DNA of 64,000 nucleotides from an uncultured Acidobacteriota bacterium (GCA_937870635.1 CALMZP010000046.1:20832-84831); one strand, 5' to 3'; positions 55,274 through 64,000 are shown, counted from the first letter of the stretch. The notes: generated by a model not told the origin, from the letters alone. A program made the numbers and translations.

Positions 55274-56242
55274 TCAGCCCGCCAGGCGCCCCACGTGGTG
55301 CCTCAACAGGCCGAGGAGGGTGTACTCCGACGTGAGGCGGCTCTGACGCTCCTGCTCGCCCTGGAAGAGGTTGGCCATCGTGCCTGCCCGTTCCTCGTAC
55401 CAGCTGGCGCTCACTTCGCCGTGGGCACGCTTTTCCTCGAGGACCGCCAGGATGTGCTCGCGGTCGATGATCTCCGGATGGTGATTCGCCCCGAAGATGC
55501 GGGGGATGCCCGACCCGGGGTCCGACGCGATTTCGATCATCGTCAGGACGCGCCTGCTCTCCGATTCGAACGCGAGCGGCATGAACGAAGCCGAATCGTC
55601 CGCGACCAGGTCGAAAAGACGGTTGTCGAGAACCCGGAAATGACGGCGATCGGGGAGTCGTTCGGCGAACTTCGCAAACCACGGATGCTCCGCGGCTTCG
55701 TCGCTGAGGAAATTGGTGGGCATGCCGGTGCTCTTCGACTGCCGCATTTCCGGGTGGGCCGCACCGGACCACCGGCAGAGCAGCCCGAACGAGTGGCAGA
55801 TCGCCAGCAGAGCTGACGATTCGTCGGCGGCGATCGAATCGAACAGGTTGAACAGCGGCGACTCCCAGTCGGCGCTCTCCCGAATGCCTTGAGCCCAGAA
55901 TTGCTCGCCGTCGTTCTCACGGGGATCGAGGTGACCTGGTCCGCCCGTGCCGACGTAGAGCCGGAAGCGGCCGTTCGGCGCCGGCGGGATCTCGTGCCGT
56001 CGCCGCACGTCGAAGGAAATGGCCCGGATCACCTTCCCGCGCGACGCCAGTCGACCGCGAGCTTCCTCGGCCGCCTCGAGGATCGCGTGCACGATGGCGT
56101 CGTGGCCTACGTTCGGCCACGAGTGGTTCATGTCGAGGATGGCCACATCCAGCCGGGCCGGATCGGCCGGGGGGAGCGCTCCGCCGTCGAGACGTACGTA
56201 CTCGAAGAAGTCGTGCTTCTCGTGGATGTCGCGGCGCCTCAT
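55274..56242 (-). CDS. Class-I glutamine-amidotransferase-like (GATase1 / peptidase-C26-like) protein
   Basis: 322 aa. Nucleophile elbow LAICHSFGLL and a late GANHHPEI (His-x-Glu). Starts 3 nt after the GCS2 stop. Confidence 0.65.
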   Translation of the reverse strand: MRRRDIHEKHDFFEYVRLDGGALPPADPARLDVAILDMNHSWPNVGHDAIVHAILEAAEEARGRLASRGKVIRAISFDVRRRHEIPPAPNGRFRLYVGTGGPGHLDPRENDGEQFWAQGIRESADWESPLFNLFDSIAADESSALLAICHSFGLLCRWSGAAHPEMRQSKSTGMPTNFLSDEAAEHPWFAKFAERLPDRRHFRVLDNRLFDLVADDSASFMPLAFESESRRVLTMIEIASDPGSGIPRIFGANHHPEIIDREHILAVLEEKRAHGEVSASWYEERAGTMANLFQGEQERQSRLTSEYTLLGLLRHHVGRLAG

Positions 56243-56245
56243 CGC

Positions 56246-57358
56246 TTAGAACTTCAGTCCGTGCTCGGTCTCATTGATGATGAAGTCGACCACATCGCGA
56301 AGATCGTGCCGCTCTTCGTAAACGGCGAGCTGCCGGTCGGCGCCGGGACGATGTTTCACGATCTCACGGGCGTAGTAAACCTCGTTCCGCGAGCCGAGCT
56401 CGTCCACCACGTCGTCGACGAACTCGAGCAACTCGTCGAGCAGGGCCTCGTACGGAACTTCCATACCCTTCCCGAAGTCGATCAGTCTGGCATCCACCCC
56501 AAACCGCGCCGCCCGTGCTTTGTTCTCGTTGATCATCGCCCGCGGGTAGGTCCGCCAGCTCATGTTTCTGCTGTAGAGCTTCCACAGCTTTTTCGTGACC
56601 GCCTGGAAAAGCGCGGCGATGCAGATCGTCTCGTCGATCCGGAGCGGCACGTCGCAGATGCGGTACTCGAGAGTGGGGAAGAATGGATGCGGGCGAACGT
56701 CCCACCAGATCTTCTTCGCGTTGTCGATGCAGTTGGTCTTGATGAGGAGCTTCACGTGTTCGTCGAATTCGCTCCACGACCGGAAGTAGTCCGGCAGGCC
56801 CGTGCGAGGAAAGCGCTCGAACACTTTGGCGCGGTAACTCTTCCACCCCGTGTTGTGCGCGCACCAGAAAGGCGAATTCACCGACAGGGCAAAGATGTGC
56901 GGCAGGAAGTACCGCGCCGCGTTCATGATCTGGATGCGCGTCTCGTCATCTTCGATCGCGACGTGCACGTGCAGGCCGAAAATGAGGTTCGCGCGCGCCA
57001 CCATCTGCAGGTCGTAAACGATCTGATCGTAACGGGCCGCCGCGGTGATGGGGACCGTTGACCAGTGCGAAATCGGATGCGTGCCGGCCGCGGCGATTCG
57101 AAGGCTGCTCTCCCGAGCGAGTTTGCAGATCTCGTAGCGGAGACGTGTGACCTCGCGCCGCGCGTGAGCGACGTCGCGGCAGATCGGTGTGCCGACCTCG
57201 ATGACCGCGTCGTGCATCTCCCGCTTGATCTCGTCCTTCAGCCGCTTTTCACCCTCCGCGAACATCTCCTGGATGTGCGACTTGAGCTCGCGGGTATATG
57301 GCTCGATGACCTGAAACTCCTCTTCGATGCCGAGAGTGAAGGAGGGCTGAACTGTCAT
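56246..57358 (-). CDS. GCS2/YbdK-family carboxylate-amine ligase (glutamate-cysteine-ligase family 2)
   Basis: 370 aa. FTLGIEEEFQV, IEVGTPIC, GTHP, FGLHVHVAI, SVNSPFW, WWDVRPHP..PTLEYRICD. Confidence 0.88.
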   Translation of the reverse strand: MTVQPSFTLGIEEEFQVIEPYTRELKSHIQEMFAEGEKRLKDEIKREMHDAVIEVGTPICRDVAHARREVTRLRYEICKLARESSLRIAAAGTHPISHWSTVPITAAARYDQIVYDLQMVARANLIFGLHVHVAIEDDETRIQIMNAARYFLPHIFALSVNSPFWCAHNTGWKSYRAKVFERFPRTGLPDYFRSWSEFDEHVKLLIKTNCIDNAKKIWWDVRPHPFFPTLEYRICDVPLRIDETICIAALFQAVTKKLWKLYSRNMSWRTYPRAMINENKARAARFGVDARLIDFGKGMEVPYEALLDELLEFVDDVVDELGSRNEVYYAREIVKHRPGADRQLAVYEERHDLRDVVDFIINETEHGLKF

Positions 57359-57454
57359 GTCGTAAGGCGAAGTGTAATGGAGCGGTCGGCATGACAGGCA
57401 TCAGGACCCTTCTCCCCCAGCGAAGACTGGGCGAGAGGTTGCGCCCCGAAGGCC

Positions 57455-57693
57455 GGATGAGGGGGCGTTGAGAGTTTTGAGGGAAGAGGCTCGAGATTTG
57501 AGGTTTGAGAGTTGAGGTTTCTAGGTTTGAGACGGGAATGGGGATGGCGATTTGTGAATGTTCAATGTTGAATGTTGAATGTTGAATGGTGAGTGGTGAA
57601 ACTGAATTCAACACTCACCATTCAACATTGACCATTCACCATTCCCGTTTCTCTTCAGTCGAAATCTTCTCTCCCAACTCGCGCCCCTCATCC
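57455..57693. repeat. About 240-nt imperfect hairpin containing tandem heptamers (GAATGTT, TGAGGTT) around an apex near 57603
   Basis: GAATGGTGAGTG (57584-57595) pairs with CACTCACCATTC (57612-57623). Outer pairs are GGATGAGGGGGCG / CGCCCCTCATCC. Lies 3' of the ATP-grasp gene on the minus strand. Confidence 0.85.
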
Positions 57694-57714
57694 GCCGCCT
57701 CGCGGGATGCAATA

Positions 57715-58683
57715 TCACCTCGGCACAATGGGCTCCCGGATGTCCTTCTCCGTCCGCATCACGGCCGGCCAGGATCCGGTCAGCTCGAGCTTCTTCTTTT
57801 CATTGACGAGTTCGATCAGGACCTCGGCCATGTTCGTGACCATCCAGTCGAAGTTCTCGCGGCCGACCGAGTTGAGGTCGGCGTCAGGCGCGCAGTTCAT
57901 GAAGTCGATCGCGTATGGGATGCCGCCGCGCACGGCGAACTCGACGGTGTTCATGTCGTAGCCGAGTCCTTCGCACAGGGCGACGGCATCGCGATGGATC
58001 TTCGCTTCGAACGCGGGGTCCATCGGCGGAGGGTTCTTCACGTAACGCAGATGGAAGGGTTGCTTCGGGTCGTAGGCCATGATGCGCACGCGTTTCCGGC
58101 CGAGGACGTAGCAGCGGTAGTAGAGCTCGAACTCGATCGCTTCCTGCGCCATCATCGTCAGGTCGCGTGTCTGGTCGTAGGCGGCGAAGAACTCGTCGGG
58201 ATTGTGGACCTTGTACACGTCCTTCCACCCGCCGCCGTATGCCGGCTTCATGAAGACCGGCCATCCCAGGTATGCAAAGAGCTCGTCCCAGTTCACCCAC
58301 TTCATGTTGCGGAACGACTTCGCCTCTGTATTGGGCGGATACTGCTTGTGCGGGAGAAGGGCGGTACGCGGAACGGCGACGTTCGCGGCTTTGGCGACGA
58401 GGTTGTCGAAAAACTTGTCGTCGGCAGACCACCAGATCGGGTTGTTGACGATCTTCACGCCGGACGCGGCCGCACATTTCAGCCACGTCCGATAGAACGG
58501 GACTTCGTGACTGATGCGGTCGAGGACGAGGTCGTAGGCGAAGACACCGTCGTCCTTGAGCCAGGAGATCTCGACCGGCGATGCTTCGACGGAATCTCCG
58601 CCGCGCTCATTGATTGCGTTGATGAGCGCCCACGGAAACGTGTCTTCCATACCGAACAGCAGTCCGATTCTCTTCTTACTCAT
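57715..58683 (-). CDS. ATP-grasp-fold ligase (RimK/glutathione-synthetase-like)
   Basis: 322 aa. WPVFMKPAYGGGWKDVYKV, AQEAIEFELYYRCYVLG, NTVEFAVRGGIPYAIDFMN. Confidence 0.75.
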   Translation of the reverse strand: MSKKRIGLLFGMEDTFPWALINAINERGGDSVEASPVEISWLKDDGVFAYDLVLDRISHEVPFYRTWLKCAAASGVKIVNNPIWWSADDKFFDNLVAKAANVAVPRTALLPHKQYPPNTEAKSFRNMKWVNWDELFAYLGWPVFMKPAYGGGWKDVYKVHNPDEFFAAYDQTRDLTMMAQEAIEFELYYRCYVLGRKRVRIMAYDPKQPFHLRYVKNPPPMDPAFEAKIHRDAVALCEGLGYDMNTVEFAVRGGIPYAIDFMNCAPDADLNSVGRENFDWMVTNMAEVLIELVNEKKKLELTGSWPAVMRTEKDIREPIVPR

Positions 58684-58706
58684 TGGGTTCTCCGGGAAAA
58701 CGATCG

Positions 58707-58714
58707 TATAGAAT
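58707..58714 (+). promoter_or_regulatory. TATAGAAT -10-like box upstream of the esterase gene
   Basis: Identical octamer to the one upstream of mdh, 26 nt before ATG 58740. Confidence 0.3.
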
Positions 58715-58739
58715 CGCCGAGCAGTCGCGCAACGCGATC

Positions 58740-59447
58740 ATGTACCGCGAATACGGACAGTGGTGGAGCCCCTCCCTCGGCCGGACGATGGAGTTTCTGT
58801 GGTTCGGCAAGTTCGGCCGGCCGGTGATGATGTTTCCCACCTCATCGGGGCGCTTCTTCGAGAACGAAGACTTCGGCCTCGCCGCTTCGGTTGCGGACAA
58901 AGTCGACGCCGGGGAAATTCAGCTGGTGCTCGTCGACACCGTGAACGGCGAGAGCTGGTACAACAAGTCGGTCCATCCGCAGGTTCGTGCTGCACGACAC
59001 GTGCAATACGACTCTTATCTCCGCCACGAGATGGTCCCCTACATCTTCAATCGGGCGCAGCGAGGCGACCTGACGGTGTACGGAGCGAGTTTCGGCGCCT
59101 ATCACGCATCGAATTTCGCGGCCCGCTATCCGGACGTCGTCAGCCGCGCGATCTGCTTCTCAGGTGTCTACGACATCTATGCATTCACGGACGGATACTG
59201 GGACGACAACTGCTATTACCACTGTCCGGTCGCCTTCATCGCGAACATGGACGGCAACCTCGCTGCGCGCCTGGCGCGGACGAGCTGGGTAATCGCGACG
59301 GGCGAATACGACTCACTGGTGCAGAAGAACCGGGAGTTTTCGTCGCTGCTCTGGTCGAAGGGAATCCCGAATCACTCGGAATTCTGGGGCGGCGTCTTCG
59401 GCCACGACTGGCCCTGGTGGCGGGATCACCTGAGAAGGTTCGTGTAG
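58740..59447 (+). CDS. Esterase-family alpha/beta hydrolase (esterase-D / putative-esterase type)
   Basis: ATG 58740 (the track start at 58683 is TTG). Nucleophile region VYGASFGAYHASNFAARYPD and late FGHDWPWW. Divergent from the ATP-grasp gene. Confidence 0.7.
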   Translation: MYREYGQWWSPSLGRTMEFLWFGKFGRPVMMFPTSSGRFFENEDFGLAASVADKVDAGEIQLVLVDTVNGESWYNKSVHPQVRAARHVQYDSYLRHEMVPYIFNRAQRGDLTVYGASFGAYHASNFAARYPDVVSRAICFSGVYDIYAFTDGYWDDNCYYHCPVAFIANMDGNLAARLARTSWVIATGEYDSLVQKNREFSSLLWSKGIPNHSEFWGGVFGHDWPWWRDHLRRFV

Positions 59448-63053: not shown

Positions 63054-64000
63054 TCAGCACTGGCGTACCGTACGGAACTTTGCCCACACGTACGGATAGT
63101 TCCCGCGGAACCAGTTGCGGAAGCTGGGGCGCACGAGCTCGCGCGCCGTTGCCGGTGACGCGCCCTTCATCACGTAGTGCTGACCGTCGAAAAAGTCAGC
63201 AGAGTAGCGGCGATAGGTCGCCATCGGACGAAAGCCTTCGAAACCGTCGAAGACAGTCGACGTCCACTCCCATCCGTTGCCGATCAGGTCGTGGACTCCC
63301 CAGCGGCTCGCCGTATCGGGATGAGAGCCGACCGGGTCCGGATCGAATGAGGCGAAGTCGAAATTGCCGCCGCTCGCTCCGAGCGCCGCGCGGCCGTACT
63401 CCGCCTCCGAGGGCAATCGTCTCCCGCACCACCGCGCATACGCAGCTGCCTCGTCGTGCGTGACCCAGGCCGGCCAGTCGAGAGGAAGGGGCAGCATCTC
63501 GAACATACCTCGCCAGAACCACTCGCCATCGACCGCGCTCCAGAAGTGCGGGGCCTTCGCGCCGGTCGCGTTCATGTAAGCGAGGTACTCGCTGTTCGTG
63601 ACGCTGAATCGATCGATGTCGAACGTACGCACATGAACCACGCGCCGCGGAAACTCGTTGTCCCACCCGAACGAACTTCCGTCGGCGCCGAGGGTGACCG
63701 GCCCCGGCGGAATGCTGCACCCCCCGCTCCGCATGAGTCCCTTTTCACGCGGAGACGCGGACAGCGCGGAGTCACCGCCGATGACGTTCCTCTTTTTCGA
63801 ATACGGCAGGTTGTGAAACATGTAGAGCAGAGTCTCCTGATGCATCAGCTCATGCTCCACGATGTTGCTCGCCGCCTCGACCTCCACCGGATCGGTGTCG
63901 TCGAGGTTGAGGAGTGCGCGCTCGATGAGCGCGTCCGCCTCCTGGCCGTACCGCTGCACGTCCTCGCGCGATGGCCACATCTCCGCCGGATCGCGCACGG
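63054..64000 (-). CDS. EgtB/SUMF1-family non-heme-iron sulfoxide-synthase-like protein (DinB-like N-part + FGE-sulfatase domain); 5' end outside window
   Basis: HELMHQETLLYM (DinB_2-like), then GWDNEFP, VTNSEYLAYM, HDLIGNGWEWT, GASPAT. The ORF is open to the window edge. Confidence 0.7.
   Translation of the reverse strand, partial: VRDPAEMWPSREDVQRYGQEADALIERALLNLDDTDPVEVEAASNIVEHELMHQETLLYMFHNLPYSKKRNVIGGDSALSASPREKGLMRSGGCSIPPGPVTLGADGSSFGWDNEFPRRVVHVRTFDIDRFSVTNSEYLAYMNATGAKAPHFWSAVDGEWFWRGMFEMLPLPLDWPAWVTHDEAAAYARWCGRRLPSEAEYGRAALGASGGNFDFASFDPDPVGSHPDTASRWGVHDLIGNGWEWTSTVFDGFEGFRPMATYRRYSADFFDGQHYVMKGASPATARELVRPSFRNWFRGNYPYVWAKFRTVRQC

Follow-up and report, generated by a model that had tools for sequence, protein, structure and literature searches.

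Attachment of a gamma-glutamyl group by an ATP-dependent ligase, followed by its removal with a cysteine nucleophile, is the common logic of PuuA/PuuD for putrescine, of BesA with its later cleavage step for beta-ethynylserine and of EgtA/EgtC for ergothioneine. The glutathione and glutathionylspermidine (Gsp) system (GshA, GshB, GspSA) draws on a ligase of the GCS superfamily, an ATP-grasp enzyme and a third, ATP-grasp-like ligase of permuted type, with a cysteine amidase to undo the reaction. Two single enzymes are further points of reference: Escherichia coli YbdK, a carboxylate-amine ligase that weakly forms gamma-Glu-Cys in vitro, and Arabidopsis GGP1, whose chemistry passes through a gamma-glutamyl thioester intermediate. 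Multi-amidoligase cassettes unite two or three different ATP-dependent amide ligases with a Cys-triad glutamine amidotransferase (GATase)-like protein and PF00756 esterases. A cassette of this type is described here from an uncultured Acidobacteriota bacterium (genome G000, 98.7% complete). Four of its genes lie at positions 55274–59447 of a 64,000-nt stretch of contig C46, hereafter the window: an ATP-grasp amidoligase (ATPg), a GCS2/YbdK-family carboxylate-amine ligase (GCS2), a GATase1-like cysteine hydrolase (GATl) and a serine esterase (Est). Iyer, Abhiman, Burroughs and Aravind reportedly flagged the cassette in their 2009 survey of amidoligases. It departs from the general type in its genome layout, which is split, and in its GATase-like slot, which within Acidobacteriota alternates with an M29-like aminopeptidase. 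Its probable function is to make and trim a gamma-glutamyl-type product, a small peptide or peptide conjugate of the cytoplasm.

The four genes are a functional unit, linked far beyond chance. In the window, ATPg is the first gene of the string ATPg-GCS2-GATl, GATl starts 3 nt past the GCS2 stop, and Est is divergent from ATPg. Analysis of open reading frames confirms all four genes (table 1), with a revised start for Est, and so bears out the layout given in the preliminary description of this sequence. A scan of one genome per species yielded 453 species with a relative of GATl; the best 80 loci, all from Thermoanaerobaculia, were examined together with 20 GATl loci and 20 ATPg loci from other classes, the latter mostly from genomes without GATl. 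Open reading frames of the related loci were called by GC3, and counts for the phylum refer to a sample of 401 Acidobacteriota genomes. Of the 80 Thermoanaerobaculia loci, 68 keep the contiguous core with Est divergent, and 78 have GCS2 next to GATl, mostly with a gap of 45 nt or less. The flanks of the core vary. The yvcK-glmU pair stands downstream of GATl in only 25/80 loci, and the ABC exporter, SOD and EgtB-like genes of the other flank are often displaced or missing. Median identity to the window proteins is 81% for ATPg (74 loci), 79% for GCS2, 77% for Est and 62% for GATl, with 76% for GlmU.

Beyond this class the same genes reappear in altered order. Among the 20 GATl loci of other classes, GATl is again clustered with ATPg, GCS2 and Est, in four gene orders. 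One arrangement is [GCS2]-ATPg-CP_ATPgrasp_2-GATl-[PGM1-like ATP-grasp]-[DASS]-esterase, where brackets mark variable members, and another is GCS2-ATPg-Est-Est2-PGM1-like-GATl, Est2 being a second esterase; bare pairs of GATl with the PGM1-like gene, and GATl alone, are also found. Est-ATPg-GCS2 recurs in 13/20 of the ATPg loci, often with Est2. Since this clustering persists through reshuffling in several lineages, it speaks for functional linkage, and the preliminary description was right to treat the four genes as a unit. Within Acidobacteriota, Est, ATPg, GCS2, a circularly permuted (CP) ATP-grasp-like protein and the cysteine hydrolase both co-occur and cluster as members of the cassette. 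ATPg occurs in 135/401 genomes (a tally that takes in the unpublished genomes G024 and G152, whose sequences did not enter the analysis) and GATl in 30/401. ATPg is present in 29 of the 30 GATl-bearing genomes, the single exception being a fragment at a contig end. The widest core of the cassette is esterase, ATPg and GCS2, with GATl as an accessory. The GATl family is small, with 216 representatives at 50% identity. In one genus, GATl adjoins a protein with a double DsbA/thioredoxin domain and no ligase (L092:10567-12060, L094, L095:7873-9435). Look-alikes in the Atlas suggest Bacteroidota, Myxococcota and Chloroflexota and serve as leads only.

Profile searches bear out the families proposed earlier for GCS2 and for the esterase; ATPg has only a sub-threshold Pfam match (R2K_2, E 0.005), and GATl matches nothing in Pfam or NCBIfam, neither PF00117 nor PF07722. 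GCS2 matches PF04107 over its full length (E 3.8e-57, 194 bits against a cut-off of 21) and the NCBIfam model NF010039, 'carboxylate-amine ligase', at 518 bits (cut-off 371), a threshold reached by 0/14 control genomes, E. coli among them. In the NCBIfam search it stays below the cut-off of every glutamate-cysteine ligase equivalog, NF010043 and others. YbdK is of the same family and fold (structure 1r8g, E 1.8e-45; 1tt4 also about 1e-45), but the window protein falls into the NF010039 subgroup and has another gene context. It is the sole GCS2 gene of the genome. The AlphaFold 2 (AF2) model of ATPg has a pLDDT (predicted local distance difference test) of 86 and adopts a three-domain ATP-grasp fold; Foldseek aligns it with Ddl, LysX/ArgX, RimK and PsnB at E 1e-11 to 1e-13 and template modelling (TM) scores of 0.6–0.75. 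Est belongs to PF00756 (E 4.3e-10, 40 bits against a cut-off of 22), and its nearest solved structures are 5vol and 6vh9 (FphF), at E 7e-6 to 2e-4. Only this general family is matched, and Est is not an orthologue of S-formylglutathione hydrolase: the window protein has no match to the FghA equivalog TIGR02821 in NCBIfam, a model on which a relative of Est2 scores 20.9 bits (cut-off 281.7). Translation of Est probably begins at ATG 58740, not at the listed TTG 58683, because its relatives align from MYREYG. This start leaves a divergent gap of 56 nt between Est and the start of ATPg.

The identity of GATl comes from its structure and its invariant residues. An AlphaFold model built with 32 homologues (pLDDT 87) has a class-I amidotransferase fold with a C-terminal helical extension. 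Invariant in the family are Cys149 in a CHSFG elbow, His255-Pro-Glu257 and a GGPG oxyanion motif (G100–G103). The best Foldseek match is GGP1 (9k7j, E 2e-11), which also heads the VIA comparison with a Z-score of 17.2, followed by the TM1158 GATase (16.9), MetA (16.7) and the small subunit of carbamoyl phosphate synthetase (15.9); many GATase1 structures score 15–17, and PuuD, with the same fold, 14.6. GATl and GGP1 (9k7i to 9k7l) share the Cys-His-Glu triad chemistry, and 233 residues align, but they are only 15–16% identical, and GATl has extra parts at both termini. Gene order supplies a further indication of its role. In classes that lack GATl, the slot between GCS2 and the ATP-grasp relative X406 is either empty (L114, L115) or filled by an M29-like aminopeptidase gene. 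The latter occurs in 8/20 other-class loci, is contiguous in L106, L107, L119 and L120, and is never found together with GATl in the loci examined. Because a peptidase and GATl alternate at this position, GATl would seem to be the system's hydrolase. A second partner is found in other classes, where GATl is paired with a 510-aa ATP-grasp protein of the PGM1/IQCH type (L084:10575-12113, L086:7796-9328, L093:7922-9451 and others); in the L084 variant there is also a DASS symporter for carboxylate or sulfate. The PGM1-like protein beside GATl distantly matches the model of BesA, an enzyme that couples an amino acid to glutamate through the gamma-carboxylate (10.1101/2025.10.10.681649). The neighbours of GATl thus include two families of ligases in which the characterized enzymes produce gamma-glutamyl amides, and the role of a gamma-glutamyl hydrolase would, by analogy, fit it.

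The window holds only part of the cassette, and the version in G000 is split over contigs. Clustering of all open reading frames of the related loci brought out two further members, X406 and Est2, which were then searched for in the whole genome. The four-gene set of the preliminary description is thus real but incomplete. X406 is a protein of about 400 aa with no match in Pfam or NCBIfam. Its gene directly follows GATl in 32–35 of the 80 Thermoanaerobaculia loci and follows GCS2 in other classes. Profile–profile comparison (hhalign) matches it to the CP_ATPgrasp_2-type ligases of other cassette variants with a probability of 93% (E 3.5e-7, 209 columns), and the aligned columns take in the KP..(F/Y).GG.GV and QE motifs. 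On the strength of this match, X406 is a candidate cryptic third ligase, a relative of the circularly permuted ATP-grasp enzymes. In G000 it has been relocated but is intact (G000:C44:86292-87473; L135:7287-8489) and 74% identical to a cassette copy; Est2 lies on contig C42, and both are in unrelated contexts. A search of the genome finds no PGM1_C and no recognizable CP_ATPgrasp_2 gene. On C44, X406 is convergent to the gene of a 1038-aa membrane protein with a spermidine-synthase domain (L135:8978-12094), an adjacency seen in 10/80 loci. This neighbour may point to a polyamine substrate or reflect synteny alone; as the adjacency recurs only within the class, it is read as synteny and not as a functional link. 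Fifteen Thermoanaerobaculia loci carry a secreted subtilase (Peptidase_S8 + fn3) of 1038 aa between the ABC exporter unit and Est (L028:192-3308 and 14 others), a gene absent from the window. The idea that this esterase neighbour is the spermidine-synthase-like neighbour of X406, also of 1038 aa, was rejected: the two proteins are unrelated.

From the observed identities, folds, catalytic residues, linkage and distribution, a scheme of substrates, steps and product may be proposed. (i) GCS2 would activate a carboxylate as acyl phosphate and join it to an amine; by family precedent this would be the gamma-carboxylate of glutamate. (ii) ATPg would attach a second residue. (iii) X406 may extend the product or conjugate it further. 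(iv) GATl would form a thioester on Cys149 and remove the gamma-glutamyl or amide group, in turnover or deprotection. (v) Est and Est2 would hydrolyse a further ester, thioester or amide bond. The gamma-glutamyl theme is plausible by analogy, given the precedent of the GCS2 family, the structural tie of GATl to GGP1 and the BesA-like ligase beside GATl in other classes, and the non-canonical gamma-glutamyl peptide module put forward in the preliminary description is still the best available reading. No cassette protein reaches the GshA, GshB or GspS models, nothing indicates Cys or Gly as substrates, and the amidase of the cassette has a GATase1 fold, not a CHAP domain. The cassette contains no oxidoreductase or other tailoring enzyme; EgtC is a class-II (Ntn) enzyme, and PuuA is glutamine synthetase-like, not GCS2. 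Several observations weigh against a gamma-glutamyl peptide. The Z-scores of GATl fall within 1 unit for a hydrolase, amidotransferases and MetA, so that the fold alone is no proof of hydrolysis. The match of the PGM1-like protein to the BesA model, at 159 bits, is far below the equivalog cut-off of 750. GATl is distant from any ligase in several genomes. Three genomes of the window's own family lack GATl and ATPg, and about two thirds of the sampled Acidobacteriota lack the cassette, which is therefore dispensable. Finally, a protein substrate would be equally compatible with how strongly ATPg is conserved.

The product might be a thiol, as the preliminary description suggested. In a glutathione-like pathway GCS2 would form gamma-Glu-Cys, ATPg would be the analogue of glutathione synthetase, X406 would resemble Gsp synthetase, and GATl and Est would recycle conjugates or thioesters. 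Each cassette member has a counterpart in glutathione metabolism. The GCS2 family has precedents in YbdK, EgtA and haloarchaeal GshA, and the CP-ATP-grasp family is related to Gsp synthetase, with a faint GSH-S_ATP match on one member. Profile searches find neither canonical gshA (PF04262) nor canonical gshB in G000, where the best PF02955 match, on another contig, has 23.5 bits and TIGR01380 has none; ATPg itself matches neither model in Pfam and NCBIfam. This agrees with the earlier remark that none of the four proteins looks like a canonical GshA or GshB. In the phylum sample, canonical GshB is above cut-off in 10/401 genomes, and nine of these make up the sampled members of family f9 (9/9) of the same class, in which ATPg is found in 0/9. 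The complementarity is weak, however, because about 250 of the 401 genomes have neither. The genome has two unspecific glutaredoxin-like domains but no GST_N domain. A BshC-like gene (G000:C101:23441-24894; L138:1489-2952, minus strand; 229.5 bits where the cut-off is 265.8, the contig end having removed its N-terminus) suggests a bacillithiol-type thiol in this Thermoanaerobaculia genome, and EgtD (348 bits, contig C26) is accompanied by a single EgtB-like sulfoxide synthase, so that other thiol routes are available. The module is missing from same-family genomes, Est is no S-formylglutathione hydrolase orthologue, and the fold of ATPg is not specially GshB-like. No observation connects the cassette with cysteine or with a thiol product; the thiol-cofactor proposal is not upheld, and a glutathione-like pathway is unlikely. 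Three gamma-glutamyltranspeptidase genes are also present in the genome (C167:4973-6517, C83:15072-16595, C148:15566-17287), alongside no canonical glutathione synthesis genes. A thiohistidine peptide deserves consideration on account of the EgtB-like gene itself. This gene, NHISS (DinB_2 + FGE-sulfatase; window 63054–64000 and beyond, G000:C46:83888-85312, minus strand), encodes a divergent sulfoxide synthase. It reaches none of the cut-offs for OvoA, EgtB and SenA and is the sole gene of its kind in G000. Sulfoxide synthases beside RimK-like or YbdK-like ligases lead to gamma-Glu-2-thiohistidine, and the thioglutine and actinothioneine clusters, whose products are gamma-Glu dipeptides, combine NHISS with an ATP-grasp or YbdK-like ligase (PMC13674229). 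In the window, NHISS lies within 5 kb of an ATP-grasp and a YbdK-like ligase, at 4.4 kb from ATPg; it would supply 2-thiohistidine, which GCS2 or ATPg would gamma-glutamylate to a thioglutine-type product. But an ABC exporter and a SOD gene intervene, and NHISS lies within 10 kb of the module in only 15–16/80 related loci and 0/40 of other classes. The link is restricted to some members of one family, and relatives have lost it. Three module-less genomes of the same family (G056, G305, G341) retain NHISS, and in family f4 it is about 1 Mb from ATPg (the NHISS tally of 36/81, like that of ATPg, takes in G024 and G152). Since EgtD is present, NHISS is probably the atypical EgtB of the genome. 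The mycobacterial ergothioneine pathway (EgtA–EgtE) is not matched by the cassette either: EgtD is on another contig and GATl is of class I. A functional link between NHISS and the module was accordingly rejected; the proximity looks like accidental synteny, and a thiohistidine-peptide cluster is most improbable.

There are two further alternatives. GATl might be a true glutamine amidotransferase subunit that feeds ammonia to the adjacent ligase to give an amide product, following the logic of MurT/GatD or of N-acetylglutaminylglutamine amide (NAGGN) synthesis. It keeps all three class-I GATase motifs, its Z-scores are level with those of genuine amidotransferases, and the gap to GCS2 is short in the window and in most relatives. 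When clustered, GATl always adjoins an ATP-dependent ligase, which is GCS2 here and a CP-ATP-grasp or BesA-like enzyme elsewhere. In some genomes, however, it lies far from any ligase, and the aminopeptidase that occupies its slot in other classes suits a hydrolase better. At 322 aa it has large extra elements in comparison with GATase subunits of about 190 aa. Fusions of GATl to a ligase were not found: the sole long match, P0391, arises from a frameshift that runs GATl into the following gene, and P0264, P0278 and P0292 are artefacts of the same sort. An amidotransferase role is accordingly improbable. In the remaining alternative the target would be a protein: the ligases would attach residues to one of its carboxylates, in the manner of RimK acting on ribosomal protein S6, and the hydrolases would take them off again. 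Conservation of ATPg at or above the level of GlmU is consistent with this, as is its weak R2K_2 and RimK-type likeness, and a role in protein modification has been predicted for R2K and the ligases linked to it (PMC4431377). Yet the cassette includes no conserved candidate substrate gene or small open reading frame, and the spacing between ATPg and GCS2 ranges from 8 to 653 nt in relatives. GCS2 members of known activity use small molecules, and the variants with an aminopeptidase, or in one case with a DASS carboxylate transporter, suit small substrates. Protein tagging is therefore very improbable, and a small gamma-glutamyl-type product is preferred.

Table 1. Genes and spacer of the cassette region in the window.
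Feature	Coordinates	Strand	Basis
GATl, GATase1-like cysteine hydrolase, 322 aa	55274..56242	-	Open reading frame, AF2 fold, invariant motifs
GCS2/YbdK-family carboxylate-amine ligase, 370 aa	56246..57358	-	PF04107, NF010039
Non-conserved spacer with heptamer-repeat hairpin, not a cassette component	57359..57714	.	Sequence
ATPg, ATP-grasp amidoligase, 322 aa, complete three-domain fold	57715..58683	-	Open reading frame, AF2, Foldseek
Est, cytoplasmic serine esterase, PF00756, GASFG nucleophile elbow	58740..59447	+	Pfam, relatives

The spacer that separates ATPg from GCS2 in the window contains a long imperfect hairpin of TTCAACA-type heptamer arrays (57455–57693), the repeat having 6 matches where 0 are expected. 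As the spacer is not conserved in relatives, the hairpin is probably an insertion resembling repetitive extragenic palindromes (REP-like). An Rfam search with it returns only sub-threshold miRNA-hairpin look-alikes, and a promoter and terminator scan gives nothing above shuffled sequences.

New features of the system described here are the split cassette in G000, X406 as a permuted ATP-grasp relative, the exchange of GATl with the M29-like aminopeptidase and the BesA-like partner. Three of these, namely the cryptic ligase X406, the slot exchange and the BesA-like neighbour of GATl, narrow the candidate substrates to gamma-glutamyl compounds. A more specific proposal, to be held as tentative, is that the cassette completed by X406 and Est2 makes an undescribed gamma-glutamyl peptide–amine conjugate, a glutathionylspermidine-like stress or redox metabolite widespread in soil phyla, with GATl and the M29-like enzyme as interchangeable recyclers. 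YbdK-type ligases have, to our knowledge, lacked an assigned physiological role since 2004; if the conjugate exists, it would give the NF010039 subgroup of YbdK/GCS2 enzymes a first such role. The ligase core is found in about one third of the sampled Acidobacteriota genomes, and its enzymes evolve as slowly as GlmU. The metabolite, once found, would add a common small molecule to the physiology of soil bacteria.

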